From: a virus
Virus record (IMG/VR): IMGVR_UViG_3300045972_000146
Span: 1-64,000 of that record
DNA: 64,000 bases
Strand: one strand, 5' to 3'
Shown here one piece after another: positions 5,001 through 55,900 of this stretch; positions within the stretch are counted from its first letter, which is position 1, and each line of letters opens with the position of its first letter. Made by a program: the position numbers and the translations under genes. The notes below the pieces were generated by a model. The model worked only from the letters and a program-made list of their open reading frames with translations. It did no database searches and had not been told where the DNA came from.

Positions 5001-5190
5001 TATATCCACTTATATAATCTCCATCTGGCGCAGTAAAACCATTAATACATCTCTCTTGCTCGGTGTTCCAATACTCAAAGTATTCTGTTGTTCCTGAGGG
5101 TGCAAAACAGTAAACACCATGCTTCTGAAAGGAGATGCACGGTGTTCTAAATTTGTCGGTATTTAATATTCTTTTATTAAAATTGACCAT
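2077..5190 (-). CDS. terL: Terminase large subunit with intein
   Basis: ISGYNYFYLNYCPI; Walker A region LKKRGAGY|SFKGAS split by an intein; Walker B LILWEEAG; FGTGG; nuclease motifs AGCDPYD and GNFDRV. Confidence 0.95.
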   Translation of the reverse strand: MVNFNKRILNTDKFRTPCISFQKHGVYCFAPSGTTEYFEYWNTEQERCINGFTAPDGDYISGYNYFYLNYCPILRLVEYEYKDRFGDIKKRREKTREFPDFYDYDYYYFSAIQEAEDEGKHMVVLKKRGAGYEQPYSEMVLTPNGYVEMGSLGVGDWVMNPNGSPIRVGEIVEQGEKDVYEVRLQDGRSVTCGENHLWTTYYKNKIHILTTKEYSERKLKQGKLGKVSYRYKLPEINPVKFDSRDELLINPYILGVLIGDGGLTRSSIYFYTDDDFILDELQRILGSEYDVKRCNNEKFKCIIKSNSNKNELIKTVKEYGLNVHSFDKFIPDDYKYASIEDRFSLIQGLMDTDGSSTSGFYSNGSCSFVSTSERLVDDFLFIARSLGIRCRKSNKISGRSNVNFGNNNFSNTRDSWAITITTDKNIFRLPRKLKNIRSRKNNLNRIAITEIVKLDRVEKQRCICVDNENHMYLTKDFIPTHNSFKGASMLARNYYHIENSKSYAIAAETEFLVRDGLLSKAWDLMDFIDEHTAWSKKRTVTTKMHRKSGIKVKDELGNETEIGYKSEIIGVTLKNDPNRARGKRGKLILWEEAGSFKDILQAWQIARPSVEEDGVAYGLMIAFGTGGDEGSRFDGLKELFYKPSGYNIKSFSNIWDEGADGNYCGFFVPVYANMSVLNEKGARMYMDKFGNSLREKATEYAMSERQKVIDGASDSRAIDRYIAENPITPQEAVLELTGNIFPKKELMMQLAALRTNKKLQNHKQVGDLNWVNGSLSWQIKKGGDITNYPLHRDDRHEGSIVIWEHPNTDTSNQLYIAGCDPYDHDKAGTNSLGSTFIYKRFQNFEEYYDILVAEYTGRPDTAEDYYENVRKLLMYYNARLLYENERKGIFPYFTQKHCDYLLADQPDIINDIIGKSTVQRRKGIHMNVPIKDYGEGLIKEYLNEEFAPGKKCLTTIFSEPLLEELIQYNDKGNFDRVIAMMMVLIYKQQLHNMHVKKKNQDSKKMQLFDMPLFSKEYYGSSSSLEDLGDKSINFTWN
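3745..4794 (-). mobile_element. 350-aa intein with LAGLIDADG homing endonuclease, class-3-like
   Basis: Starts EQPYSEMVLTPNG; block B VTCGENHLW; LAGLIDADG motifs LGVLIGDG and IQGLMDTDG; block F/G KQRCICVDNENHMYLTKDFIPTHN followed by Ser+1. Confidence 0.92.
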
Positions 5191-13019: not shown

Positions 13020-13233
13020 GCACATTGTATCCCATGCTAGTTCATTGTCAGGCCTCCTTTAGATGTAAATGGTGTGGGTGTAGCAGGAAAGTAAACTAAG
13101 ACATAAGTGGCTGCTTAAATCAAGGATGTATCATTAGCATTCACACCAATCATAATGCAGGAGCTGTACTGCAATCAAATGACTCACAATAGCTTAGTGA
13201 AAGGGTCATTTAAAACAAGTAATAATCAATATT

Positions 13234-13497
13234 ATGAAGAAATTACTATTAATAGCATTGATGTGCATTGCATTTATTGCCTGCACCAACAATCGCATGA
13301 CAAGTGATGCATTTATCAACGACTTAAATTCATTTGACTCAACGGCTACTTACGTATCTACTGTAGTTGATATCGATAATAATGCGTGTACATTCATTAT
13401 TAAGCAAAATGATAGCATATTTTCATATGTAGTAGAAAGAGATAATGTCTCAAAAGCTATAATGGAGATGGCTCGGCCAGGAAACAAGGTTAAATAA
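13234..13497 (+). CDS. Putative lipoprotein
   Basis: Lipobox signal MKKLLLIALMCIAFIA|C. Confidence 0.65.
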   Translation: MKKLLLIALMCIAFIACTNNRMTSDAFINDLNSFDSTATYVSTVVDIDNNACTFIIKQNDSIFSYVVERDNVSKAIMEMARPGNKVK

Positions 13498-15990: not shown

Positions 15991-16178
15991 AGTGCTGTTG
16001 ATTATTACAATAACTTATAATCCCCTAAAGCGTTAGGGTGATGATTTCTCGGCTATAGACGCCATTGACATTCAGAGAGGAGAATAATAAGACCACAAAT
16101 CGTCAAATTAAATACGCGTGGCAATAAAGTTCTCCTCTTGCTTTAATTTGAAATATCTAATCAATAAATATAAATCAA

Positions 16179-16310
16179 ATGAAGAAATTATTAGTAATAG
16201 TATTGCTATTAATGGTAATACTAAGTAGCTGCATTACTGTAGCTAAGGCGCCAACAAGCGATTGTACTCATTACGACAGAAAAGGCTTAATTATTAATCA
16301 TAAAAAATAG
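16179..16310 (+). CDS. Small lipoprotein (43 aa)
   Basis: MKKLLVIVLLLMVILSS|C lipobox. Confidence 0.55.
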   Translation: MKKLLVIVLLLMVILSSCITVAKAPTSDCTHYDRKGLIINHKK

Positions 16311-17178: not shown

Positions 17179-17241
17179 AGAAACCAAGCTTAAGGGTGGC
17201 ACGCTTAAACCCTTAATTATTTACCATTTATAATCAATATC

Positions 17242-17508
17242 ATGGCAAGTACACTGTATTTCAACGACAGAACTGAAAAGTTCTTAATAAAGAATAAGAT
17301 TAAAACTAGATTTGTAAATAATACAAAAAGAGGTAAATCTGAAACTGAATTAAATAAGTTCATAGAGCGTGCAAAATTACTATCACCTCGCGATGTGATT
17401 GCACATGCATTTACATGGATTGAAGACCCTGAATATCATTTAAACCCAAACTTTTGGTTATATATGTGTAACAGGGCAAAGCGCTGGGAAGAAGAAGGTA
17501 AAATTTAA
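17242..17508 (+). CDS. Hypothetical protein
   Basis: 88-aa ORF. Confidence 0.65.
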   Translation: MASTLYFNDRTEKFLIKNKIKTRFVNNTKRGKSETELNKFIERAKLLSPRDVIAHAFTWIEDPEYHLNPNFWLYMCNRAKRWEEEGKI

Positions 17509-17885: not shown

Positions 17886-17889
17886 TTAA

Positions 17890-19185
17890 AATAAAAAGCT
17901 TTAATTAGATTGCTGGTCACGGCTGACTTGGTTTGAACAATAGACCAAAGAAAATGTGTTGTCATGGTGATAATTAAAGCTTTTGTTAACATGTCATTTC
18001 TGCTTCCAAAGGGCAGACTATATTAAATAAGGTAACAAGTGTAAATAAACTGTAGATATACATAAAAAAGCATGATTAGAATTATTTAATATAGAACATG
18101 GATGGGCAAAAAGGAGGGTTAAATCTGGTACTACATTTCAACCAGAGCCTGTGATAGGTATAGTAAATGCTAAAATACATGTAAGAAATTCTCATGTTAA
18201 TTACCGAACTTGAGTGATATCTATGGAAGTTTGACGCGGCTGACCAACAATGGCAATAAGAGATTGGCTGAGGATTCCTAACGGGCCTAGGCCAAATTCG
18301 ATGTGTAGCGAGCTATGCGGATGGGTATTATAATGGAGGTTGAATGGGTATCTACCCTAAAGATTAACACTATCAAGAGCTAAAGTAGAAATACAATGCG
18401 CCAAATCCTTGACAATTTTCCTTGGCACAAGTGGAAAATAAATGGCTGTCTTTAAACAGAAGTTAAGAGCCACAGTTCATTAGATGACTTAGAATGAACA
18501 AAAGACTATTCGACTAATCAAAAACCTTTCGTAGGGAAATGATAGAATTGAATATCCGCTAACGTCGGACAAGCCCGCAGTTTTGCGAAAGCAATACAAA
18601 AGGACCGTATAAGCCGGATTGTAACTGAGCAATAATTCAGTTGATTGGTTAAGAACCAAATTAAGTTTACCATTGGAACCATTAGAACCCATTCTTGACG
18701 CTGGTAAATGTATTTGTTAAGGCGTAGAGCAAATTGATTGGCTAAGGCTGGCCCATTTTCTAGAGATAGCTTCGGGTGAAACTAGATGCTTGATTAAGAA
18801 TCACAACCTCGCTCAAGGATAATTAGCAAAAATTCCTATTCTAACTATTTTTCGCGAGATAGAAAGAATAGTCCGTGACGTACGAAGAGCGGATACGAAA
18901 CCTCATACAATGCCTCGTATGACGAATCTAAAACAAGAAGGCTAAAAATACAAATGCGAGGAGGGTGTAGTCACATGAGATGGCTCGAGGTAGGAAATGC
19001 CGCAAAGAGAGCGGGTGTAGTATTTGTATGTGAAAAGCAAGCATTGGAATCCAGATGACTGGACCCTTACCGTTAGATGAAACCGTAAGTGGAATATCTA
19101 GACAGCCGGTATAATTAAAATGCATATAACGAGCGAGTAATATCCCCATGGGGACGCCATTCAAATGTTATATGCATTTTTTAAC
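17890..19185 (+). ncRNA. Putative giant structured ncRNA A (~1.1-1.3 kb)
   Basis: No plus-strand ORF of 60 aa or more over 1.45 kb; many local and long-range helices (see findings); followed by a tRNA-like element. Confidence 0.65.
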
Positions 19186-19187
19186 AC

Positions 19188-19270
19188 GCCAGTATCATAC
19201 AAGATGAGAGCCTTGTAATGACCACGGAAAACTCTACGGAGTCTAAGGAGTTCGAATCTCCTAACTGGCA
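19188..19270 (+). ncRNA. tRNA-like element
   Basis: Acceptor GCCAGT/ACTGGC and canonical T-arm AGGAG-TTCGAAT-CTCCT, but no standard D or anticodon arms. Confidence 0.6.
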
Positions 19271-19335
19271 CAGATTTATTAAACAATTAACAGAATTTTA
19301 TACACAGTTTTTAACAACAATTAATTATCAAAATT

Positions 19336-19602
19336 ATGAGTAAAGTAACAGTATTTGTATCATTATTGATGAGTATGAACTTTGCAGCAAATGCAAAAGT
19401 ATCAAAGTCATTGAAACGTATTGAAAAAGGTGAAAAAATTGATGATGCTATTCTTGCAGCTGAAGCTAAAACTTCAAAAGCATACAAAGAAGATGCAGCA
19501 TTTGCAGCCAAAGTGGATGCTATTATTGCCGGTAAGGTTGAAAAACCAAAAGCAGAACCAGCAAAAACAACTACAAATCGCAGTGGAGAGCCACGCCGAT
19601 AA
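19336..19602 (+). CDS. Ala/Lys-rich hypothetical protein
   Basis: 88-aa ORF with A-rich leader. Confidence 0.65.
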   Translation: MSKVTVFVSLLMSMNFAANAKVSKSLKRIEKGEKIDDAILAAEAKTSKAYKEDAAFAAKVDAIIAGKVEKPKAEPAKTTTNRSGEPRR

Positions 19603-27590: not shown

Positions 27591-27974
27591 ATGAAAAGAA
27601 ATCAATTCTTGATAGCAGTTGGCAAGGCCATAGCTATCGCAGCTTTTGCTATTTTTACTGGGGGAATGTTAGGTAAAGCTCAGGAAGATTCTAAATTACT
27701 GGTTCACGTTGACCGGGCAGTTGTAAGCCCAATCATTGTTGAGCAACCAACAGCAAATTTAGATTTAGTTACTTTGTTACCCGACCTTCTAACGAATCAA
27801 CTTATCTCTGTACAAACACCAATCACCCTGAAAAGCGATGTGTTCTATCGGCGGACCTTAAGTTCGATTACAAAGAAGACGACCATCGAGAATCGACGGC
27901 GTGCCCCTATCACTTTCGGACCGACAATCCGGGAGGTCTCTCGAGGCGATGACCTTGAATTAAACACGAGTTAG
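27591..27974 (+). CDS. Secreted or membrane hypothetical protein
   Basis: N-terminal hydrophobic helix. Confidence 0.6.
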   Translation: MKRNQFLIAVGKAIAIAAFAIFTGGMLGKAQEDSKLLVHVDRAVVSPIIVEQPTANLDLVTLLPDLLTNQLISVQTPITLKSDVFYRRTLSSITKKTTIENRRRAPITFGPTIREVSRGDDLELNTS

Positions 27975-28087
27975 CTGAACTTGATCGTGGCGAACAAGAG
28001 AAGTTAACCAAAAACAGGAAATCGTGACAGACAAATTTTCAAATTATTATTTTCAATTATCAAATTTTATCAAAAAAGGAGGTTTTT

Positions 28088-29068
28088 ATGAAAACAACGC
28101 CAACCGAAGAAGTAAAATCGGAGCGGAAACAACCAATTATGACACCAACCGAACTCATGGGAGTTCGAGCAATTTACAAGGAAAAGTTAACTGAAGCAGT
28201 TAAGCTTGGCTACGCCACAAAGGCAGTAGCATTACACAAGCGTATTGATTCGATTGACATTATGTTAGACAGTTTATTGATGGGTGATATGGAAGCAGCA
28301 ATGCCTACAATTCGCATTGATTTAAACATGTTTACCATGCAGGAGCTTAAGAAATTAATGCCCGGTTTCGATCCGACTAAAGTGCTTATGAGTGGTGAAA
28401 ATACAATTGATTTTGGAGTGGTTGAAGACGTAGAATCAGAAGAGGTAGTAGAAGAACAGCACACACCAGTGACTGAGGAAGAAACTGCCGAAATTGGCAT
28501 CGTCGAACAATTAAACGAAGTTCTTAAGAAAAACTTTGTTGCACAAATTCCAGAAGCAATTAAGTTGTTTCGCCAAATCACCGGTAACACAGACCCCGAT
28601 GGTATTGCGTGGATAAAAGTTTCTAATTTGTTGAAAGGTGTTAATCGCCTATTACCTTTATGGTATAACCGATTACGTCATAATTTGCTTGAAGATGGCT
28701 CCATAAAAGCTTTCTGGCAGGTTAAGAAAAACCTTAAGACATGGACCGACATGGATATTGCTATTTTGTTGAAAAACGCTTTGGATGAGTCCATCGAAAG
28801 CATAGAAGACGTTAACACTCTTCTTACAACAAGAGACAAAGTATGCCATATTCTACACCAAGGTCCGGTTAGAATCAAAGAACTTGCTGAATCGCAAGAT
28901 AATATTGACCTTATTAAGTCAATGTTAGGAATTCCGGCTACAGGAAAAGTGAAAGGTGACGACGTAATGAAATGCGTCACGCTGATTACCAACTTGTGTT
29001 CTCCCGAAAAGAGAGCTGAGATTCTCAAACGCAAACCATACGTAGAAAAAGGATATCCAATCGTATAA
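28088..29068 (+). CDS. Hypothetical protein (AGGAGG-led)
   Basis: 326-aa ORF; AAAAGGAGGTTTTT precedes the ATG. Confidence 0.8.
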   Translation: MKTTPTEEVKSERKQPIMTPTELMGVRAIYKEKLTEAVKLGYATKAVALHKRIDSIDIMLDSLLMGDMEAAMPTIRIDLNMFTMQELKKLMPGFDPTKVLMSGENTIDFGVVEDVESEEVVEEQHTPVTEEETAEIGIVEQLNEVLKKNFVAQIPEAIKLFRQITGNTDPDGIAWIKVSNLLKGVNRLLPLWYNRLRHNLLEDGSIKAFWQVKKNLKTWTDMDIAILLKNALDESIESIEDVNTLLTTRDKVCHILHQGPVRIKELAESQDNIDLIKSMLGIPATGKVKGDDVMKCVTLITNLCSPEKRAEILKRKPYVEKGYPIV

Positions 29069-29071
29069 CCT

Positions 29072-29497
29072 ATGAAAAAGTTATATGGACTGCTTTTTGC
29101 AGTTTTCTTCGTAATCGGATACGTATGTGTCCAAACAAAGCCAGCAATCTTGGAAGAGAGCGCTGTTGACCTGGCAGCTAGTCTGCATTTAATTGAAGTT
29201 AACGTATCTAATACTACTATGAGTTATCAAAATAGCTTTCGAGAAGACATTAAGTATGTCTTTCCGCAAGAAGATGATTACACATATCCTGGAGGAACAT
29301 TGAGTTCAATCGTTGTTATCGCTAAAGATAAGTCAAAACGAAATTCACAAGCAATCGCTATCGTAAGATGGCAAGTAGATAACTATAAGAGAAAGTGGCA
29401 AGGATTGGAACCCTTGCTTCGAGATCCGGTGTACATAATTGAGACTCCGATCGAGATAGAAGAACCATTATTTCTGAAAGGAATTTACAAAACGTAG
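29072..29497 (+). CDS. Membrane-anchored hypothetical protein
   Basis: N-terminal signal or TM helix. Confidence 0.65.
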   Translation: MKKLYGLLFAVFFVIGYVCVQTKPAILEESAVDLAASLHLIEVNVSNTTMSYQNSFREDIKYVFPQEDDYTYPGGTLSSIVVIAKDKSKRNSQAIAIVRWQVDNYKRKWQGLEPLLRDPVYIIETPIEIEEPLFLKGIYKT

Positions 29498-29504
29498 AAA
29501 TGAT

Positions 29505-29939
29505 ATGGAAAATAAACTAAAGAAAGCAATTGCAATATCAGCAAAGGTTAGAAAGCTTATAAAAGCTAAAGTGCAAATAGCGGAAATAATTAGTGACCTG
29601 AGTCCCATTGAGGCAGTCATATCTCCGAGTCTAATAACGGCACAAAACGATCTCTTATATGAGATTCTTATGTTAAAACGTATTATTTTTACAATAGTGA
29701 GTGGATTGCCTGGTTATGACGTAAGTCGACACCTGGTAGTTGATTACTTTTCTGAAGCAGATTTAAAGACTGGATATATAGACCTGGCTATAGCGGATAT
29801 AGACACAGACTATTTAGACCTGTCTACTGGGGACATTTTGCCACCAGATAAAGTTCCTTATGAAATGAGAAATCTTTCTGATTTTTCCATAAGTGAGGAA
29901 GTTGCAGTCGGGGATACAGCAACTGAAAGCAAACGATAG
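29505..29939 (+). CDS. Hypothetical protein
   Basis: 144-aa ORF directly before the long non-coding region. Confidence 0.65.
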   Translation: MENKLKKAIAISAKVRKLIKAKVQIAEIISDLSPIEAVISPSLITAQNDLLYEILMLKRIIFTIVSGLPGYDVSRHLVVDYFSEADLKTGYIDLAIADIDTDYLDLSTGDILPPDKVPYEMRNLSDFSISEEVAVGDTATESKR

Positions 29940-29979
29940 TATCCAAAACCATTTCAGAGTTTATCAACATGTAAAACAA

Positions 29980-31760
29980 TTAACGTCTAAGTTAGGACCT
30001 ATTAATATGCACACACAGGCAGTGTGGTGTTAGGGATAAACTTGCCTATTAGACAATAGTATGCGCTATTAAAAAAGCAAGTCCCATGTGATGGAATTTA
30101 AAGTCACTACAAAAAAGAGTGCGGGGTTGAACTCCTAGCAACAGCCTATGCATTGTAGGAGGGTCTTTAACTGCGTTTGTAACGTACATAGTTAGAGTAG
30201 GTATAACGGCGACCAAACAAGACACGTTATTAAAAATGGTACAGCTTTGGAACTGTATCGACTGTTGAACAAGGGTAACTGCACGAACAAAACCACTTAC
30301 AGGTAACTCTGTATAATAGTACTGCGTAGGTTATCGATCAATTAATTATTAATAATATAAACCGGCTAGAAATGCGCGGGGTGGAAATCCAATAATTAAT
30401 TCAAGCTATAGATTACACTTTGAGGGTTAAAGACCCTATGGCCCATGGACCAGTGAAATAGCGACCTGTCAAGTTATTAAGTTTGAGACAGATAAAAAAT
30501 ACACAAACTAGCCTTACTAATTCACTGGCTACAATAAAGTGGAGAATTAGCCCTAGTATGCTTTCAAGGTTAATCGAAAGTGGGAGGTGCATGTGCTGGT
30601 ACGCATGACAAGAGCTTCAAGGCGAAAGCCGAAAACCGGGCACGCACGGTATAATGCAAACCGAAACCTAATTTACGCTGTTTCATAATTTTCAGCCGTA
30701 TTGAAAAAGATTAATCCCCTGGGGTAGGGGCGAAGTTTATCCTGCCAGACAAAAAGAACGCCACGTCTTTAGTCAAATTTCACGAACGTATGGGAAAGCC
30801 GTTCACCCAAATTGCATATTAGTAGGCTCTTCCCTGTCTCGGAAATAGCCGAAGGAAGTCGAAGACTATTCAATCCGTGCGACAGAAGCTCCTGTATACA
30901 ACTAGTGGAAGGGTCAAACACTTAAAAACCATATTTAAGGTGGTCGAAAGCTATCACATTTCTAAGCGACTAAAAAGCATAGAAAGATCGATAATTAGTA
31001 CACTCCCTATCTGAAGTCTAGAACCCTGGGAGCATTCTACCCAGATAAAGGTCAAAAGCAAGCCGGGAACTTCATGCTGTAACAGGACGGAGCCACCGTC
31101 AGATGTAGCGGAGACGGTACATTCTTGCCTGGACGATAGACGTAGTCACTAGATAGGATAAAATGCGTTATTTTTCTCAGACAATTTCAAGACTGCGCGG
31201 ACTTCAAGGGCCGCTACAATATAGATCTTCAGAACACCGTTTATAAACCGTTGGCCTCATTTGCCAATATGAATCGACAAGGAATTGATACAAGGGTCGC
31301 AGCAAAACAACCATAGTTCTTTATTGCTTTCTTCAACAAGTAAAGTATGCCTTAAATACATTGATATTATTATATAATTATCTATCGCGTGTCAATACGT
31401 AGATAAACCTTTCAAGCCTAGCACTTGGGGATGGAGTATGAGCCTAATTAATATAATGTAATTGTTCGAGAGACCGAAAATTGCTACAAATATCATAATT
31501 TATAAAACCCATTTTAAGCCGTTCTAAGGCATTATAAGTCAGCGTTGATACGAAAGTACTATTGTGAAAAGATAGTGGCATAGCGGAGCTGTAAATGCGT
31601 ATAAAGGGCACAATTCCTAACTAATAGTTGCAGTGGGCGCAAAACCCATAGGTTAATCGTAAATTAGCTACTTTCAAACCACAATCCCAACCCCTCTTCT
31701 AGTACCTAGCGGAAAAAAGAGCAGCGAGTGCGATCGCGGGATTATTTTCAAATTTTATCC
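29980..31760 (+). ncRNA. Putative giant structured ncRNA B (0.85-kb closed core, up to ~1.8 kb)
   Basis: 1.95 kb with no ORF of 60 aa or more in any frame; nested long-range helices of 14, 10, 12 and 8 bp plus a crossing 9-bp helix; GNRA and T-loop-like hairpins. Confidence 0.7.
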
Positions 31761-31885
31761 GAAGAATTCTCATAAATGTTAAATTGGACAGTTAAACGGG
31801 CTACGGCAGAACATTCCAATCAAGTAGGAACTTTCAGTGATTATCAAAAACAACATTATTTATCAAAAATAGGAGGAAACAAACA

Positions 31886-32368
31886 GTGAAAAATTCAAAA
31901 GAAGAAGCCCTACGGCTTTTCGGAGCGACCCTAGGAGGTCATATCCACTCAATCAAAGTTATACCAATGGATAAAGACGCAAAATCGAAAGATGATGCAT
32001 TCCAGGTAAAAGTACCATTCCAATCATACGTAGTTGATCACGTAAAAGTGAACACAGTAGCACACAAACAGGTGTCAGGTGGTATCGATATCGTCCTTAT
32101 CAACGGTGGCGAAAAAGAAATTAAAATCGGTTTAAACGAGCCATTGATTAACAATGCTTCGGAAATCGTTAACGGGTCCGACGTTATTGAAAAACGGACA
32201 TTTTTTGGTGACGCAACAACACCGGCCGAAATCGTAAAAGCAATGAATTTATCAGAAGTGGCACGCATTGATACGATTATGGAAGAACTTGCCGCAACAC
32301 GGGAAGCTCTTATCGGTATCGTTGAAGCAACCGACCGTGCTGCAAAATCTTACGACGGCTTAGATTAA
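31886..32368 (+). CDS. Hypothetical protein (AGGAGG-led, GTG start)
   Basis: 160-aa ORF preceded by TAGGAGGAAACAAACA. Confidence 0.75.
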   Translation: MKNSKEEALRLFGATLGGHIHSIKVIPMDKDAKSKDDAFQVKVPFQSYVVDHVKVNTVAHKQVSGGIDIVLINGGEKEIKIGLNEPLINNASEIVNGSDVIEKRTFFGDATTPAEIVKAMNLSEVARIDTIMEELAATREALIGIVEATDRAAKSYDGLD

Positions 32369-32396
32369 TTCTATGCCCTAGGAAAGGAGGCGCAAC

Positions 32397-32930
32397 ATGA
32401 ACGAAGAAGAACTTATTATCGTATTAGACGATTACGACAAAAATCATTTCGCGGAATTAATTGATATTTACTTAGAACCTAAAAGTCGCTTTCGCATTAA
32501 AAATGATGGAACCGTAATCTTCGAAAAACATGGACCATTCATTGATTGGTTCGTTCGTTCAGAAAATCAAGTCGATTTCTTAAATTGCTTCCAAGCAATA
32601 GTTAAAGTAATGCTCGACGACAAAGTTAAAGGAAGTATACCATACATCCAGTCGCTTTGTGGCGAAGCTATGGGTGAATTGATGGCTACTAATAATAGAA
32701 AACAAGCTGTAACTAGCTTGCTATTAGCTCACCTTAATGACTCGCAACCGAATTTCAACCCAGGACGATCTCGTAACAGAGAACTAATGGATGACATTCA
32801 AATTGTCGAACAAAGCAGACGGCGCAAAGGACCAGTTAAAGTGTATTTTGGAGGCGGTGGAGACATGGCCAACTTAGCAGACTTTATTAATGAACGTAAA
32901 GCTTTGGTTATCTTCGGAAACGGAGAATAA
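32397..32930 (+). CDS. Hypothetical protein (AGGAGG-led)
   Basis: 177-aa ORF preceded by AAAGGAGGCGCAAC. Confidence 0.75.
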   Translation: MNEEELIIVLDDYDKNHFAELIDIYLEPKSRFRIKNDGTVIFEKHGPFIDWFVRSENQVDFLNCFQAIVKVMLDDKVKGSIPYIQSLCGEAMGELMATNNRKQAVTSLLLAHLNDSQPNFNPGRSRNRELMDDIQIVEQSRRRKGPVKVYFGGGGDMANLADFINERKALVIFGNGE

Positions 32931-33203
32931 CAAAACAAAATTTAAAAAGATATAAGTTGGGTAACTCCGTAATACAAATATCTGCATATGTAGGGTAACT
33001 CCGTTATTGCATAAGTAGTGCTGATTTGTGACTTAAATTAATTTATATAACCCCATACTAGAAAGCCTCTGTATTTACTATAGAGGCTTTCTTAGAGGGA
33101 TTATAATGCATAAAGAGAGGAATCTCAATATGATACGACGGGGAAAAGTATCAGGCTGAATAGTTATCATAAAGTCAAACCATTAAAAATCAATTTTATA
33201 TAT

Positions 33204-33632
33204 ATGAAAACAGCAAAAGAACTTATCCAAACCCGCGAATCTCTGATCAACAATATTAAAAAGAATTGGGATCGTATTCGCATTGAAAATGTGGTAGAAG
33301 CCGGACAAACACGTAATTATAATGTACAGGCTTTGTACAAATCAATTATTAATGACTCATTGGCTCTTGTCGAAGCAAAGTTAGATATTCAATTAGTGAA
33401 TATTGGATTTAAAAAACGAGAAGAAATGCCAGCAAGTTGCATTTATCCGCAAATCTACTCATTACAACAATTAAAAGAACAGAAAACGAAACTTAATCTT
33501 ATTCCAACAAAAGGAGCAGCGGTTCTAACAGCCTCATTTGTAGAAGAAGAAACTAAGGTTCTGGATTCACAGATTCTTGCACTTGAAAGCCACCTTGAAA
33601 ACCACAATAATTCGTGGGAAATCGCGGCATAA
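33204..33632 (+). CDS. Hypothetical helical protein
   Basis: 142 aa, ends EIAA. Confidence 0.7.
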   Translation: MKTAKELIQTRESLINNIKKNWDRIRIENVVEAGQTRNYNVQALYKSIINDSLALVEAKLDIQLVNIGFKKREEMPASCIYPQIYSLQQLKEQKTKLNLIPTKGAAVLTASFVEEETKVLDSQILALESHLENHNNSWEIAA

Positions 33633-33839
33633 AAACAAAACAGAAGTAACGGTGATATGTTAATCAGTGACAGAAATGATTAATAATTGGGTTCAATCCC
33701 CATACTTTAACAAATGGCAATAGCGTACCAGTTAACTAAGTACGTTTTGCAAAACAGCAGAATAAAGTTTTTTGTCGGGTTTTTAAACTGCTACCATGTA
33801 CATGGTCTAAAACCCTATCATTATTTTAAAACAATTCAA

Positions 33840-38941: not shown

Positions 38942-39072
38942 AAACCAAAGGGCATAACCCTGAGGTTCGTACCGGGGTGTCCCCGATGCGATGGGAGCGA
39001 TACCCATATGCCCGACTAGATAGGGGCAAGAGAAAATAAGTATTATTATTAACTAACTACAAATTATATCAA

Positions 39073-41870: not shown

Positions 41871-42872
41871 ATGGAAATTAAAATACCATATTACGAAGAT
41901 AATTCTCGTATCTCCAATTCGTCTTTAGGATGGTTTAAGATTAGTCCTAAATACTTTAAAGGTAGATTAGATGGTACTGAGAGTTTCGAAACAACAAAAG
42001 CAATGGAAAATGGGACAATGACCCACATGTACTTGCTACAACCAGATGAATATAAGAAAACTTATAAGATTTTAAACTTCACAACACCAACTTCCCCTCA
42101 ACAGAAAAAGTTCTGTCAGGACTATGTAAATAGCAAGGCCGTAGGGGCCAATTTAAAGGCCGCTGAGGCATTCAAAGCTAATTATAGCACAACTGGCAAG
42201 ACAGAGGAAGATAATGCCGTGAAGGGGCTAGAAATGGCCTTAAAGCTCGATTCTTATATCAAATGGCTGGAGACTGGAGGAGATGCAGGTAATACTATTA
42301 CTTGGAGCACCTCAAATCAACTGAAAATAACAAAAGAGAACGTCCAGCTTCATAAAAAAGCTAGCGATCTCTTATTTAATAACGGAAATTCACCAGAGTA
42401 TATTGCTCAGAATGAATTCCATATTAACTGGAATGTCAAATTACAAAATGGACATTTACTAGAGTGTAAATCTTTAATAGATAGACTTATAATTGACCAC
42501 GAAAACAAAGTAATAAAATTGGTAGATGTGAAAACAACTGCTGATGTTAATGCTTTTGCTTCTTCGTTCAAAAAGTATGACTATGGAAGACAAATGGCAT
42601 TCTACTGGATGGCTATAATTTGGTATTTCGACAATGAACTTAAAATAGATATTTCTGAATACAAAAGCGAAACATATATAGTTGCCATTCAAAATAATGG
42701 TAATTGCGCATGTAGAGTATTTAGCATACCAGAAGAATCTATTGTTGCTAAAACAACAGAACTAGCACAAATATTATCAGACATAGATTGGCATATGAGT
42801 CAAGATATGTGGGATTATACCAAAGAGTATTACGAAGGTGATGGTGTAGAATCATTACCTAATGAATATTAA
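41871..42872 (+). CDS. PD-(D/E)XK exonuclease (RecB/ExoVIII-like)
   Basis: ISNSSL, GTMTH, KSLIDRL...VDVKTT, YGRQMAFY. Confidence 0.85.
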   Translation: MEIKIPYYEDNSRISNSSLGWFKISPKYFKGRLDGTESFETTKAMENGTMTHMYLLQPDEYKKTYKILNFTTPTSPQQKKFCQDYVNSKAVGANLKAAEAFKANYSTTGKTEEDNAVKGLEMALKLDSYIKWLETGGDAGNTITWSTSNQLKITKENVQLHKKASDLLFNNGNSPEYIAQNEFHINWNVKLQNGHLLECKSLIDRLIIDHENKVIKLVDVKTTADVNAFASSFKKYDYGRQMAFYWMAIIWYFDNELKIDISEYKSETYIVAIQNNGNCACRVFSIPEESIVAKTTELAQILSDIDWHMSQDMWDYTKEYYEGDGVESLPNEY

Positions 42873-43401
42873 CGAAGATTGCAATTTATCAATGTTTCTA
42901 TTACTTCCACTTATATCTGTAGATGATATAACAGCAGAAGATATAATAGGAGGATATGAAGATGCATTAATGAATTCTTTCAGTTATGACATTAATAAGC
43001 CTTATTTAGACGATCATATACATTTAGTATTTGATAATTCTATGTTTAAGGAAAAAGATGTCGAACCAATAACCAAAAGGGACGAATTATGCTACATATC
43101 TCACTATCGATTATCTGGAGTTTACGTTAAAGTATATGCATTAAAGATATCAGACGAATTCGAATTAAGCAAAAGGCTTATTATGAATAACGATATATCA
43201 AGTTTAATGCCAGAAGTTAAGGCTAAGATATTCAAATTTTGGAATACCTCAGGAAGAACTAATTTATTTGATATTCTCTATAATGAGAAACCGTCAGACA
43301 AAGAAGTTTCAAAAGAGATACTTCCAGAAGAGGATTATATCGAAACTGAAACTATAGAATACGTAACGAACTTTTCACTAAGAAGTGATTGGGACTATTA
43401 A
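42862..43401 (+). CDS. Hypothetical protein, last gene of the rightward block
   Basis: 179-aa ORF. Confidence 0.7.
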   Translation: MNINEDCNLSMFLLLPLISVDDITAEDIIGGYEDALMNSFSYDINKPYLDDHIHLVFDNSMFKEKDVEPITKRDELCYISHYRLSGVYVKVYALKISDEFELSKRLIMNNDISSLMPEVKAKIFKFWNTSGRTNLFDILYNEKPSDKEVSKEILPEEDYIETETIEYVTNFSLRSDWDY

Positions 43402-46400: not shown

Positions 46401-49400
46401 TTTTAGGGAGTAGGTTAAGCCTTTATTTATCTTTTTATAGAATTCCGATATTTCATCTGCTATTATCCTATCTATAGACCCAGCCATCTTCTCTGTGCCA
46501 TCCATATATACTTTTGATGATAAGTTAGCTTTAGCCTGTTTAAGTGCCCTAAACTTACTTATATCAGCTTGAGTCATTAATCTAGTATCTATAAACCCTT
46601 GTTCATTCCTAAATCCAAGAACGAAACTAGATAATGTTTCTTTTGCATTATTTAATACTTCTGAAGCATCTGATGATAGTGATTTTTTAGCATCATAATA
46701 CTCTCTTGTAAACATTCTTTCAGCATTCTCTGATAAATAGTCATCTAACTCGTCATTATACGTTTTCAACTCAGATGGATCAGAAGGGACATCATATTTA
46801 CTCTTTAAATCATATTTTTTCTGCAAATACTTTCTAAAATCTTCTACATCCTTATTAAACTGACCTCTGAGCAGATCAGATAACATGTATCCAGTAGCCT
46901 TTCCATCTTTATTATGCTCCATGAACCTTTTGTAGGTTACGGTTGGATTAAATTTGCTTAATTCAGCAAAAGAATCTGCAAGCCCGCCAAGAACTCCGTC
47001 TATTTCTATCTCTCTAGTTATCTTAGATTGAATATCTACTACTGTTTTGTCTAATACTCTAAGCCTTTCGTCTTTCTTGTTCTGCAGACTACCGAAAAAT
47101 ACCCCAAGTGCGTGTAAGTCACTAGGGGCAACACTAAAATTCTTTAACAATTCCTTCATTGTCGGAGAACCAACTTCGTCTGCAACTTTTGCAGCCATCT
47201 TGCTCCATTCGTAATTAACCAATAAATTGGTAGTCTTATCTATATCTGTAAGAATTCTCTGTATTTCAGTATATTGATGTTGAATCTCCTTTATTTTTGA
47301 CATTGGAAGAGATACAAGTGGACCATAGTTCTTTAGATTTAGTATGGTATTGATAGCATGCATAGTACTATCATATAAAGGATGAAAGTCTCTTCGTATG
47401 TAGTTTATATCATCTGGTGATATCTCATCTCCTCTAGTCATTATATTCTTCATTTCATTAACAGATTTTGCAGACTTCAATACATCTCTATATGCAAACT
47501 CTACAAAACTCAATGCCGAACTAGCAATTTCATTAGATTTCAAGCTTCTAAGTAGGTTTTTCATTTCCTCAATAGTAGCTTGATCTGGACTCTTTCTTCT
47601 TTCTAATATCTTTATGTTTGCAGTTAAACCATTAATTGCGGTATGCAAGAAGTTATTGGCAGAACTAGACGACATTTCTATATCAGTAGGCAGTGAAGAT
47701 TCTTTCTGGCCTTGTTGAGGAGTAGATATTAATGCCGCAGCCTTTTTTAATCTAGATTTTCTACCAAATGAAGCTTTATTTGAAATTTCATCTTGGATAG
47801 GACTTAGTACAAAGTATCTTTCTCCATCAATTTCTCTTTCATATATAGCATCATCCTTAAACGCGGTAAGTAGTTGATTATATAATGTGTCATTCTTGCC
47901 TATAGCGATAAGCACTTCATTAAAACTAGACCTATCTAAGTTGGCAACGAGCGATTTAAGTATAAATGCAGTGTCTACTCTTTTGGTTTTGTCTTTAATT
48001 TCAATATCCTTGATCATTAAAGAATTTCCATTATCATATACGTCATAAATTGCAGCAGTATTGCCACTTGCATACTCAACAGATCTCTCTGCAAAATCTA
48101 CATACGATAATTTGGATAGTATATTCTTTCTTATGAACTCAGTATCATAGACGCCATTATCAATTATATTTTGTCTAGACAATTCGCCTGCTACATCATT
48201 GCTAAATTTTATAGCCTCTGATAATGTAATAGTTCTTTGTTCGAAATCTCTAAGCTTTTTTGGATCGAGTAAATCTAATACTTTGTTAACGTCATCTGCG
48301 ATCAAAGTTCTTTGGTACCCATCTATAAGACTAAGTTTATCTTCTCCATATAAAATCCAATTAGACAATCTATCTAGAGTAGTATTTGGTCTTAATTGTT
48401 CTATATCATTTCTTTTGCCAAATACGTCTTTAATAAAGTCAGTAAACGCCTTCCAGTATTCTCTTATAGTTCCTTTTAATCCAGGAGTCATAATCTTTTC
48501 TGCAGACTTATCCTCTAATGCTTTTATTATAAGCTCATCGAGTTTATCCGAATCAGAATAGTCTTTATATGATACTAACGAGCCAAATACATCTTTCTGA
48601 TGTCTTGCGGCCTCTAGCGCAAGCTGATTATATATATACTTAAGCTCTGGGTTGTTTTTAAGCATATTAAGGAATGGGTGACCAAACATCTCATGAATAG
48701 TAGTCTCTGCAGATAGTTCACTATCGATTAAATATGCAGTGTTTTCTTTTGCATTAAAAAATCCCAGTAGTCCATTTTTTCCAGTTATTTTATGGTTCTC
48801 AGTAACCCCTTCATTGAAAGCAGCAACTACTTGATCGTATGGAAGTATTTTAAACCCCATTCCAAATCTGGCATTAAACTTGTTAGCAATACCTGTAACT
48901 ACATTTATAGTAGAATTAGCCATTGGATTTTTAATTCCAATCTGAGACATCTTTAAAGTAGATCCAAATCCTATTTCGGTCTGATCATTCTTATCAACAA
49001 TTGGAGTTACTTTGGAAATCATATTCTGTCTTTCCTCCGCAGTAAATGGAGCGCTTTTAATCTCATTTAATGTCTTAACTGCACGATCATATGCAACTTG
49101 AGAAACGTTATCTTTTAATTTAAAAGTATATATGATCTTCTTACCTGAATCTGTATTTTCGGTACCAACTCTATCTATGGTTATATTTGAGTTAACATTT
49201 TTATCATACTTTCTCTTTATGGACTTAAATTGATCTTCGCTTATTGCAGTCATAGCCCTATCATTTCTACCAATGGCATCAGCAAGTTCTTTGTTTATCT
49301 CAGCAACCTTCTCGTTATACATAGACTCTAGTTCATTATCCAAACTAGGTTGTGGAGATGGAACTATTTGCTCTTCTATAATTTCGGCAGGACCCTGAAT

Positions 49401-49538
49401 ATCTTCTATCGTCGGCCATGACTCTAAGCCATTTTTACTCTGAAACGCAGCAGTTCTTATCTCCACTAATAATGGAGACAATCCTGACTCTTCTACAAGA
49501 CGTTGGAACGCCTTACTTTTAATATCTATACAATTCAT
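43500..49538 (-). CDS. Giant virion (ejected cargo) protein with zincin-like motif
   Basis: 2012 aa; TIHEMFGH motif; next to the virion RNAP as in crAss-like phages. Confidence 0.75.
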   Translation of the reverse strand: MNCIDIKSKAFQRLVEESGLSPLLVEIRTAAFQSKNGLESWPTIEDIQGPAEIIEEQIVPSPQPSLDNELESMYNEKVAEINKELADAIGRNDRAMTAISEDQFKSIKRKYDKNVNSNITIDRVGTENTDSGKKIIYTFKLKDNVSQVAYDRAVKTLNEIKSAPFTAEERQNMISKVTPIVDKNDQTEIGFGSTLKMSQIGIKNPMANSTINVVTGIANKFNARFGMGFKILPYDQVVAAFNEGVTENHKITGKNGLLGFFNAKENTAYLIDSELSAETTIHEMFGHPFLNMLKNNPELKYIYNQLALEAARHQKDVFGSLVSYKDYSDSDKLDELIIKALEDKSAEKIMTPGLKGTIREYWKAFTDFIKDVFGKRNDIEQLRPNTTLDRLSNWILYGEDKLSLIDGYQRTLIADDVNKVLDLLDPKKLRDFEQRTITLSEAIKFSNDVAGELSRQNIIDNGVYDTEFIRKNILSKLSYVDFAERSVEYASGNTAAIYDVYDNGNSLMIKDIEIKDKTKRVDTAFILKSLVANLDRSSFNEVLIAIGKNDTLYNQLLTAFKDDAIYEREIDGERYFVLSPIQDEISNKASFGRKSRLKKAAALISTPQQGQKESSLPTDIEMSSSSANNFLHTAINGLTANIKILERRKSPDQATIEEMKNLLRSLKSNEIASSALSFVEFAYRDVLKSAKSVNEMKNIMTRGDEISPDDINYIRRDFHPLYDSTMHAINTILNLKNYGPLVSLPMSKIKEIQHQYTEIQRILTDIDKTTNLLVNYEWSKMAAKVADEVGSPTMKELLKNFSVAPSDLHALGVFFGSLQNKKDERLRVLDKTVVDIQSKITREIEIDGVLGGLADSFAELSKFNPTVTYKRFMEHNKDGKATGYMLSDLLRGQFNKDVEDFRKYLQKKYDLKSKYDVPSDPSELKTYNDELDDYLSENAERMFTREYYDAKKSLSSDASEVLNNAKETLSSFVLGFRNEQGFIDTRLMTQADISKFRALKQAKANLSSKVYMDGTEKMAGSIDRIIADEISEFYKKINKGLTYSLKNQLFEETYKNVLSSMSQEEADTWFKNNTKVAYKQKWWDKLTSIEKNPQLPIYDELYELRKSLLNIYRNPDTMEIPAYILENTTIKGGSTLADKIKKIDIALSTARLQHPPKNGLGFKDIAKIEPTDEYKKTLRAVAQESLTNPSSISDFDNRTTYIDANGYRQLYSYWTKLIPKDENMIYNEPNTLWSEVDQSSEFINKNFNIEESEGGMVPKRSKYDNSREYNKLMKDSRSKAFYDKLKDAYEVANSNYSYIQNPSKYRLAQIPGTFLERITKGDTFLSGFREAMADQVRWMPYDNIDGDYDTAGLHRADGSKVRFVPTKYRTMLEDRDSISRDLLGSFAEYYRAAVHFREMSENAEKIELMLDGIKQTRVVDKENREVKGAGQSNTYSRASHFVSSAVYSDQLANDYSIKLGKKGITTTGATRERGNKFSLAKPMHTIINDFVRKINLFLNLFAIQSNAVASQINLKVEASCGIWMNNNGYLKGQKEVIASLPSALTKNLSGYSHNKLLSMMRMFGVTKSNLEDMKDLHGATLLKNVSKVIGYGPFTAGDFATKGAMLVGVLSNFKPYNGQFYSREQFISEFFPGNRSNGEIVFDAIDENMYDAFEVRDNMLRVNPKYASSLSESSINYATTVAADLARKLDGTLTAADKGKLHADAFASAFFLHRGFMQVAAEERFSSRKFNYRKQAWSSGDYTNIGSSGKILLDYLAEKVGESMHFKFGNTLGFKMGDMKNKYSTDQLYNFRKISGDLKWLMLVSVAAVLAGSMVGDSDDDKKRSWQQFIYTILLRNVLELGSVRSPMDAYGLIQSPTAAQPAIQQLGEIFGGMLDGTLFDRIQEGRYQYYTKLERALIKLTPAYKNYFETFIKPDLKAREAFSKKNINVIFTNVEKIAMTPAQRAKKDAIQKLEQERFNKQMEIDRGENKYLPLGYEETPQDLKDQKIRARRKSRSTRKINRQLKKVKKTM

Positions 49539-49588
49539 TTTATATGTTTACGCGCGAACGCATCGTTTTATAACATTTAATTTGCTTC

Positions 49589-49945
49589 TTAATATTTTAG
49601 GAATTTCAATTTATATAAAGTTCCATTGATCAATTCTAATATATCATCACATATTTGTTGACAATAACTACAATCTAATGTTTCTCTAAATGCAGTGTAT
49701 TCCTCTGATTTGGTTGTTAAATATTTAACTGGAACTAATCCTTCTGATATTGAGAACGACTTATATCCTTTTATAATACCATATTTACCTTGATATGATT
49801 CGATAAATCTATCTCTAAGATCTACTATATCTTGGTATAATGAGTTTAATGCCATATGCACAGCAAAACTATCAGTCTGCAGGTGAGCAATATGAATGTC
49901 TGTTTCTAGTGCGAATAGACTAGATGCGAATTCTTCTACTTTCAT
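49589..49945 (-). CDS. Ferritin/Dps-like protein
   Basis: HIAHLQT.SFA.H.AL..LY....D.FIE..QG...LYKL four-helix ferritin pattern. Confidence 0.8.
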   Translation of the reverse strand: MKVEEFASSLFALETDIHIAHLQTDSFAVHMALNSLYQDIVDLRDRFIESYQGKYGIIKGYKSFSISEGLVPVKYLTTKSEEYTAFRETLDCSYCQQICDDILELINGTLYKLKFLKY

Positions 49946-52900: not shown

Positions 52901-55900
52901 TGTAGGGATACCTTGCTTACCACCAGAATACTCAAGTTTCTTTTTACTTTCATAAGACAATCTAGATTTACTAAATGCTTCAAATTCCTTTCCTTCCGAA
53001 TTATATTTATCGATGGTGGCTAAAGTTTCTTTTACCTGATCGGTAACAGCATCCAATGGAATTCTAGTTTCATTAGTACTATTAGGATTAGTTATTACAG
53101 CCATCATGACATCTATAAACCTATTCTGAATTGCTTTAGTAGAATTTTGTTTCCATTTATTCTCCTTAGAGTCATTCATTGTAGATTTAAATACTTCTCC
53201 AGTCTCTTTATTCTTACTATAGTTATATCTAGTAATGTATAATTTATCAATATCGAAGTCACTACCAGTTAAAGCAGTAAATTCATATGGTAATATAACT
53301 GTATCTCCCATAAATTCAGGAAGTACATCAGTAATTTTAAGTCCAGATATAGACGATAATCCCTGAGTTGGAATACGATATCCCATTGCAGATGGAGCAG
53401 AATTCTCTCCAATTATATTATTGGTCTTAAGCCAATTTACTTTTTCCTCGTGAGTCTTTAATGTAGATGGAAGTATATCTTTGAATATATTTACAGAAAC
53501 TACACAGTCCATAGATCCATCTGGATTCAGGAATCTTAATTTCTTTCCACCATTCAATTTATATGCAGCACTAGAATCGTCAGAGTGTTTAAGTCCAAAA
53601 GGAGTCATCTGAATAAACATACCACCTGGAGCCTTAATGTCTACAGTCTTTTTTAATATGCTAGATAAAATCTTAGACTCAACAAAGGCATTGTCAACCA
53701 AAGCCTGTAATGGATTTGCAGTTGGATTTTTTTCGTCAAACTCTGATAATATTTCTGACACATCACTTGGCATATTAGAATTCTCAGCCTCTTTAGCCAA
53801 GAAGTCATACATGTTCTTAGTATTGAAGTTATAGGTACCACTTTCTGGATCTAATTTTAATCCAAATTGCTTTTCTACTTCTAATTTTCCTCTATCTGAT
53901 AACTCAGACATAGCTCCGTTCCATTCCTCTATCAACTGTTGTCCAGTAGCACCTTTTTGTCCATTGATAGTGATATTTTCATATACGTCAGTAGGAACTA
54001 TATTTCCCATAGAAGCTTTCTGTACTTGAGTAGCAATTGACATTTCAGCACCTTCGTGCGGCTCTGTTGGCAACTGATGTCTCAAATAATCAAACGATTG
54101 AGGACTAGATTTTAAGTCCTTAAGATCTGACAGTGCACTTTCTGCTTTATCTATGTGTACTGATACTGGATTATCATTACCAACCTTAACTGCAGTTGAG
54201 AATGCGGCCATATCTACAGAAGATATATCATGAGATCCATCAGACCTCTTTTTGTTCATTTTATCATATAGAACTTTCAAGTCTCCAGTTGCCATGAATT
54301 TAGGAAGTAAAAACATTGCCATCTTATCTAGCTTAGGAACATTAAGTCCGTCATAGAAAGATTCTCCAAAGTAGACCATCTTTAATGGATGTAATGCCAA
54401 ATCAGCAACCTTTGCATATTTCTCTGGATCATTCATCCATGACATATCATTAGACTCCATCAAATTAAATGCTTCGTCCATGTCTTTAGTAAAATAATCT
54501 TCACCGAGTCTGGTCAGCATAGATCTATACATATATGGAGATACATATACCGTAGCATCAGTTACATTTACATTTTCATAAGCTTTAGATTGTTTGTCTA
54601 CCAATGCTTCTGCCAACGCAAATTGTTTAGGATAATCAGTTTTTAATGCGTCTAATTCTTCTTTTCTAGACTTATCAGAATATATATCATACAAATCAGA
54701 AACAACTGCCGATCCAGATTGTTGCATCAATCTATTTACCTGAGCCGCATATGATCTATCCTTTATGTCAGACAACTCAGTACTTATTACTTTGCTATCG
54801 TTTAACTCGGCTACATTAAATGAGCTTATACCATGAAGAACGTGTCCTTCTGGGAATGAGTTTCTTAATGCAGTACCGGTAGATAATACGGATGAAAGTC
54901 TTTTTGTCTTATCATCACTATTTGCGTAGTATGCTAAATCCTTAGATATCAATTTGTCTGTCTCAAATTCCGATATAACTGAATTAATTGCAGTATTAGA
55001 TAATATATTTGCAATAGTTACCATATCTGCATTTTCATCAGATATCCCAGCTGCTTTGTATATGGCTAGGTTAGCATTATATATTGCTTGGTCAATCGAT
55101 TTATTGTAATAAGAAGTACTAGTAACTATATCTCCAATTTTAACTCCTTTTGCAGGATTATCCATTGTAGCGGTATATGAATTTACATTCTTTCCTATAA
55201 GCCCAATAGATAATGCGTAATCCATTTCAGATTTAGTTGCCGATGTTATAGTAGAACTAATCATCTTAGATCTATTCTCATAGTTCTCGCTAAAGAACTT
55301 CTTGTCCAATCTATCTATAGCTTCATCCATAGCGGCATCATAACCTACCTGAGGGCCTCTTGTTGCCACTACTTTGTCGATATAGGCATTTAGATCTATT
55401 AATCCATTATACTCGTCTCCAGGGGTAGTAGAATGAACATACAGAGAGTCCATGTATCTGAATCTAAGACCATTACCATGTCCAGCAGCCCATTTGGTAC
55501 TTTTTGGACCAGCGTAGTGATAGTTCTCTATAAGTAATTTCTTATTTCCTTGAGCGTCTTTAACCTGTTGCCATGCCTGTTTGATTGCATTGAATTCGGC
55601 CTTGTAATATCCATCAAATATATCAACAGCTTCTTTTGGGTATGATATCTTATTATTAAACCATGTCATTCTCTGAGCATTAGCTGTAGTAGAGATCATA
55701 TTAGGCATTTTAACTCCAAATATAAAGCCATAAGTCTTTTTATCTGCCATTGCCGGCAATGCAATGTTACTAGATAATAAGTTTGACATTTTAATAGTAT
55801 AATCTTCTAACGGAGATATGTCGAAATAGTCACGACCTTGATCAGCAACTCCTTCTTCGTATATCTTAACAAACGTACCAAACGATATTCCTTTAAATGA

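Follow-up and report, generated by a model that had tools for sequence, protein, structure and literature searches.

A large conserved locus of crAss-like phages, predicted to encode structured RNA, lies outside the described RNA families

Large structured RNAs of unknown function are rare and, rRNA aside, we know of no structured non-coding RNA in bacteria or phages that is larger than the locus described here would be as a single molecule. The closest described systems are GOLLD (RF01998), ROOL (RF03087), OLE and the raiA motif RNA. GOLLD is a large, multi-domain and conserved non-coding RNA of phages and prophages, which is often located near tRNA genes and has no known function. ROOL is a large ornate RNA from phage-like contexts, also of unknown function, which measures ~0.6 kb and is mostly found in Firmicutes and rumen samples. 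OLE and the raiA motif RNA are large, highly structured bacterial non-coding RNAs defined by covariation; they are cellular and not phage-borne, and have known protein partners or phenotypes. The solved structures of GOLLD, ROOL and OLE are striking RNA assemblies (PMC12286853). For GOLLD oligomeric assembly was shown (PMC12286853).

The locus reported here is an ORF-free gap of ~1.9 kb in a window of 64,000 nucleotides, by which we mean the whole stretch of DNA that was analysed. This window covers the first 64 kb of an IMG/VR virus record that is 93,863 bp long and carries direct terminal repeats. With GOLLD the locus shares its large size, a predicted multi-domain organization and conservation in phages, and tRNAs are likewise present in the window (21346 and 25950). 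It resembles ROOL as a candidate large ornate RNA in a phage context, and OLE and the raiA motif RNA in its definition by covariation. In contrast to GOLLD, which is ~0.8 kb long, the locus spans 1.5-2.3 kb and belongs to a different phage group, the crAss-like phages, whose presumed hosts are Bacteroidota. The original prediction for this DNA, a large structured RNA of an unrecognised class, had named Rfam as a first check. At gathering score, the Rfam 15 models identified the two tRNAs in other parts of the window and left the gap without a match; a threshold of E up to 10 added three chance-level matches only in the gap. In the loci of nine relatives solely tRNAs outside the gaps were detected. 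Thus no match to GOLLD, ROOL, OLE, group I or group II introns, RNase P, tmRNA or rRNA was obtained in the gap, nor to the raiA motif RNA, and the GOLLD model is without a match in the window as well as in the nine relatives. Literature searches yielded no account of a long non-coding region or RNA in crAss-like phages, and the main comparative paper on the group is silent on such a region (PMC7886860).

The source phage is crAss-like. The large terminase shares 59-65% identity with that of phages in the crAss-like family Suoliviridae, e.g. cr118_1, and the genome is laid out as in Suoliviridae, with giant virion proteins encoded on one strand and a sigma factor followed by the replication module on the other. 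The terminase itself (2077-5190, - strand) comprises 1,037 aa and is matched by crAss-like terminases in two to three pieces, which cover 67% of it and therefore suggest an inserted element (intein or extra domain). All genes neighbouring the gap are located on the + strand, and genes for a helicase, a primase and an annealing protein follow ~3 kb downstream. The 326-aa protein encoded two genes upstream of the gap and the 160-aa protein on its other side match no Pfam or PHROG family. Both were modelled with confidence, as an all-helical fold and as a beta domain with a long helix, respectively (pLDDT 83 and 85), and a PDB fold search with both models gave no match at E <=0.001. A repeated motif (ACAAnTAATnATCAAnATTATG...) occurs at several gene starts of the window (13215-13260, 16165-16205, 17223-17244 and 19317-19362) and may serve as a common promoter or leader, with similar N-termini. 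DNA of the window was found in two pond runs, of which one is probably its source and the other contributed an identical piece of 336 nt, and no variants were seen. The listed sequencing runs containing this stretch are all DNA, which counts against the structured-RNA reading.

Contigs of relatives were recruited with a DNA pattern for the C-terminal K.YVEKGY motif of the 326-aa protein family and later with patterns from blocks of the gap. An exhaustive profile search revealed 34 homologues of the 326-aa protein, and members of this nearby marker family are 19-57% identical to the window copy. A syntenic ORF-poor gap of 1,472-2,302 nt (distinct full-length gaps, n=11) is present in 11 lineages including the window; this number is a lower bound, and the locus accordingly belongs to at least 11 related phage lineages. 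The gene order is constant in every relative, with genes for ~130 aa, the ~300-aa homologue, ~135 aa and ~120 aa, then the gap, then genes for ~156 aa and ~175 aa. In the close lineage L002-L004 (handles beginning with L denote lineages), which was identified via the flanking proteins at 54-63% protein identity, the ORF-free gap measures 2,098 nt and aligns collinearly with that of the window in blocks of 70-80% identity. Gaps from different clades share 45-59% identity over their whole length and contain collinear blocks of 70-97% identity; the alignment of the 5' half is poor in parts. The order of the modules is strictly collinear in all lineages.

A blastn comparison with the distant lineages yielded 14 matches for the gap and none for the directly flanking genes (27591-29939 and 31886-33632). 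Only the sigma factor and the core replication genes, which are located further away, are conserved equally well at the DNA level. A metagenome scan added one further contig of the L003 lineage, which ends inside the gap. Among GenBank phages neither the gap (blastn) nor the 326-aa protein (tblastn) found a match.

Other non-coding parts of the window are conserved as well. A second ORF-free region of 1.4 kb (17886-19270) shows collinear blocks of 70-94% identity in three relatives (two complete genomes), which indicates that this phage family carries at least two large conserved non-coding regions. The spacer 33633-33713 contains a hairpin whose loop resembles that of a tRNA T-arm (UGGGGUUCAAUCCCCA) and which is enclosed by a closing stem (33643-33708). 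This non-coding element is nevertheless 74-90% identical in L021, L022 and L131, and a less strict look-alike is located at 38942-39013.

Two crAss-like phages of the human gut with RefSeq genomes extend the comparison. Besingivirus coli (cr118_1, NC_055872.1) has an unannotated ORF-free gap of 1,920 nt (53706-55625). Immediately downstream of this gap are homologues of the 156-aa and 175-aa genes (E 1.2e-13 and 6.7e-11 by hmmsearch), and a sigma factor is encoded on the upstream side at a greater distance. In Birpovirus hiberniae (cr115_1, NC_055898.1) an unannotated ORF-free gap of 2,205 nt (47392-49596) is linked to the same neighbours by tblastn. Both are comparable to the window gap in being placed downstream of a sigma-factor cluster and in their size of 1.9-2.2 kb. 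Their sequences show no detectable similarity to the family of the window or to each other, no Rfam family was found in either gap, and a search of cr118_1 with R1, the covariance model of domain M2 (Table 1), returned nothing. The position and size of the non-coding region are therefore conserved into the human-gut Suoliviridae, while a similarity in content was not detected. The same two genomes contain other RNA features: in cr115_1 a tmRNA is annotated (42525-42886), located a few kb upstream of the sigma factor, and in cr118_1 the gene for the major head protein, annotated as two CDS, is interrupted by a group I intron (Rfam, 94.7 bits; about 81999-82296).

RNA structure is supported by covariation. 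For the alignment of 11 sequences RNAalifold predicts 127 consensus pairs at -94 kcal/mol, of which 72 change on both sides in a compensatory manner (179 cells). Six column shuffles gave 29-50 pairs at -10 to -18 kcal/mol with 5-13 compensatory pairs and 7-28 cells. Single modules were assessed by counting pairs against slid-partner and shuffle controls, and all three modules tested passed. In domain M1, 86.8% of the cells are paired (22-47% with slid partners), 10 of the 19 pairs change on both sides and three G.U pairs are conserved. In M2 the paired cells amount to 96% (17-48% slid), with both sides changed in 10 of 16 pairs, and the AU-rich terminal hairpin 3' of the conserved GUUCUU is found in 11 of 11 lineages. 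One compensatory change is seen in the 5' domain of L049, where UGGG/CCCA replaces UAGG/CCUA. The twin hairpins near the 3' end have exact-pattern matches in the relatives, with GCAGG/CCUGU, GUAAG/CUUAU and CGUUAU/AUAACG as compensatory changes. The window copy scores 98.5 bits with R1 (E 4.8e-17). Over 850 kb, including many unrelated viral contigs, R1 found one copy per genome and this at the syntenic place only (85-134 bits, E <=2.7e-14), the next-best match having an E of 0.78. An Erysipelotrichaceae contig that came up in a pattern scan of genome contigs has no R1 match and was therefore discarded as a chance match. Many helices are supported by compensatory changes, and the long non-coding stretch is conserved over diverged genomes; both properties are used to describe large ornate structured non-coding RNAs.

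Table 1. Positions of the ORF-free locus and of its conserved and predicted features in the window
Feature	Position	Strand	Remarks
Whole ORF-free conserved locus	29940..31885	+	Between a 144-aa gene (29505-29939) and a 160-aa gene (31886-32368)
5' domain	29985..30054	+	Closed by GUCUAA (29985-90)/UUAGAC (30049-54) and UAGG (29993-96)/CCUA (30045-48); common to L003, L131 and L049
Conserved block AAACCGGCUAGAAAUGCGCGGGGUGGAAAUCC	30359..30390	+	In window, L003, L131, L021 and L062; 86% identity to L021 over 59 nt
Local hairpin AGGGU-UAAAG-ACCCU	30423..30437	+	Aligned copy in L003 is GAGAGU-UAGCG-ACUCUC; covaries
Conserved block UUUCAAGGUUAAUCGAAAG	30562-80	+	97% identity to L021 over 31 nt; recurs in the L021/L022/L062/L082 clade
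GGCGAAAGCC GNRA hairpin	30621-30	+	Recurs in the L021/L022/L062/L082 clade
9-bp hairpin GGCUCUUCC / GGAA(A)UAGCC	30825..30850	+	88.7% of cells paired vs 32-48% slid; both sides changed in 7/9 pairs
Conserved block GUCAAACACU	30913..30922	+	8/11 lineages
Multi-helix domain M1	31007..31161	+	Pairs counted over 31003-31166; closed by 31007-12/31156-61 and 31016-21/31149-54
Domain M2	31190..31352	+	Hairpin 31197-201/31210-14; long helix 31224-32/31285-98; conserved GUUCUU; AU-rich terminal hairpin ~31326-31348
10-bp covarying hairpin	31458..31484	+	
Twin hairpins GUGGG-CGCAAAA-CCCAU and GUUAAU-CGUAA-AUUAGC	31633-49, 31652-68	+	Covary
Putative Shine-Dalgarno site AGGAGG and GTG start of the downstream gene	31872..31888	+	Marks the 3' limit of the locus; read from the sequence

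The fold drawn in the original prediction does not agree with this consensus. All seven helices named there are complementary in the window, but complementarity of this kind is as frequent as expected by chance, and the ten other aligned lineages retain none of the seven. Complementary stretches in the gap number 1 (at least 14 pairs), 6 (at least 12) and 43 (at least 10), and dinucleotide shuffles contain on average 0.98, 6.3 and 47.4, respectively. The 3' arm of the proposed helix 30160-30171/30426-30437 instead forms the local hairpin that covaries with the L003 copy, and the helix 31006-31012/31151-31157 is off register with respect to the two conserved closing helices of M1. The single-sequence minimum free energy of 30800-31360 is also no better than that of shuffles (z 0.14 and 0.72, both strands), which counts against the structured-RNA reading. 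With complementarity at chance and folding energy at shuffle level, the window sequence alone gives no evidence of structure. What held up is the proposal of a large structured RNA of an unrecognised class, which is backed by synteny in 11 lineages, by the covariation that had been suggested as a check for syntenic homologues, and by the lack of an Rfam match. Two of the motifs pointed out also recur: the plus-strand GCGAAAGC (30622-30629) is part of the GGCGAAAGCC hairpin found in relatives, and GGTGGAAATCC is located within a block common to four other lineages.

We infer from conservation, covariation, the missing coding signal and the missing Rfam match that 29940-31885 is a real conserved structured RNA locus outside the described families. 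Conserved G.U pairs, GNRA loops and the neighbouring genes, which are all on the + strand, point to an RNA read from this strand. The G.U pairs inside the best-supported helices (M1 and M2) are kept in 8-11 lineages; this argues for a + strand RNA, since the other strand would carry conserved A.C mismatches. GNRA-capped hairpins number 21 on the + strand and 5 on the - strand. For helices predicted on both strands the G.U and A.C counts (44 vs 36, and 31 vs 28) do not decide the strand. Our preferred reading, which we hold with middling confidence, is that the + strand of the gap specifies a large structured non-coding RNA with several domains, which acts as a folded RNA.

Its transcription, its ends, its unity as a single molecule and its mode of action are what we infer beyond this. 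The core of the RNA would extend from ~29985 to ~31350 (1.4 kb) and may reach ~31670 by way of three more conserved hairpins. It would probably be transcribed together with the rightward early or middle genes, which begin at the sigma-factor cluster of the phage and precede the replication module, and would fold into several independently closed domains. No protein product would be made; in analogy to GOLLD and ROOL, the RNA might act in trans as a stable folded molecule, serving as a scaffold, as a ribonucleoprotein core or as a self-assembling particle.

The main rival to this single-RNA reading is a tandem arrangement of separate structured RNA elements, for instance small RNAs, processing or stability hairpins, or a long structured leader controlling the genes that head the replication module. 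We regard it as a serious though lesser possibility. The original prediction had suggested one RNA of up to ~1.8 kb, and this part of the claim found no firm support, as the 5', central and 3' parts are not connected by any convincingly covarying helix and each supported domain closes locally. Thirteen long-range pairs are 86% paired with 11 compensatory cells, and the predicted long-range helices (e.g. 30851-56 with 31318-23) are short and show almost no sequence variation. When long-range stacks were sought in an unbiased scan, four conserved ones were obtained, compared to 0-1 in shuffles; there is hardly any covariation in them, and one is incompatible with a local hairpin that is well supported. 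That the long-range helices are few, short and barely covarying counts against a single molecule. Separate elements are further favoured by modules that come and go independently among the lineages (the window lacks the GAUCCUUAAAUGGAGAA and UUUAAGCUUC modules, and most other lineages have both), by conserved blocks that extend up to the Shine-Dalgarno site of the next gene, and by the separate T-arm-like hairpin conserved at 33643-33708. In the clade of L021 a terminator-like hairpin 3' of M2 is followed by a U-run, and an RNA could end there. Against separate elements stand the strict collinearity of the modules and a total length that remains at 1.5-2.3 kb despite deep divergence, and no recurring promoter motif was found. 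A consensus scan of the gap for promoters and terminators gave matches at shuffle level only, which counts against the preferred reading. The motif preceding the 5' domain does not recur within the window, and a repeat search detected no repeats linking the gap to other spacers.

It is improbable that the locus functions at the DNA level, as a replication origin or another protein-binding region whose transcript is merely a primer. The helicase, primase and annealing-protein genes are located ~3 kb downstream of the gap and the GC skew across it is flat, both of which would fit such a role. However, iterons or direct repeats are missing from the gap, and its GC content of 0.34-0.44 is not below that of the surroundings, so that no AT-rich unwinding region is apparent. 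Conserved blocks over 2 kb far exceed the needs of an origin. More than 20 helices with compensatory changes and conserved G.U pairs constitute the pattern of an RNA, and the GNRA loops favour one strand.

That the gap is protein-coding after all, by small ORFs, an unusual code, introns or frameshifts, is very improbable. Stop-codon recoding and introns are reportedly known in crAss-like phages, cr118_1 has its group I intron, and in some relatives ORFs of 60-113 aa are found inside the gap. In the window, however, the predicted absence of any ORF of at least 60 aa in all six frames was confirmed, and the + strand frames contain 38-43 or 44-56 stops each, depending on the count. Reassignment of any single stop codon creates no long frame either, the longest + strand opening being <=111 codons. 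The translated comparison, which had been proposed as a check for a decayed gene, gave similarities of 10-55 aa between lineages; a given block matched in several frames and on either strand, and this indicates conservation of nucleotides and not of protein. No small ORF is conserved, and no intron family matches the window or the gaps of the relatives. Decayed genes or a neutral, functionless spacer would be in line with a folding energy equal to that of shuffles and with the partly poor alignment of the 5' half, but this least credible of the explanations is already contradicted by covariation, by blocks that are better conserved than the adjacent genes, and by the persistence of the gap in lineages with proteins 19-57% identical.

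Returning to the preferred reading of a large folded RNA, we tentatively consider a more far-reaching form of it, in which the locus would produce a single RNA of 1.4-2 kb. This RNA would represent a new class, exceed GOLLD two- to threefold in size, would occur throughout the crAss-like phages including diverged copies in the gaps of the gut Suoliviridae, and would work as a self-assembling or catalytic machine during infection; such an extension is less likely than not.

The comparative support for the locus is comparable to that for GOLLD, ROOL and OLE, and it is two to three times longer than these and is not matched by any described family. A single RNA, if this is what the locus produces, would be a ready target for structure determination. 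The crAss-like phages include the most abundant viruses of the human gut, and such an RNA could also help to explain how these phages, which are poorly understood, gain control of their hosts.
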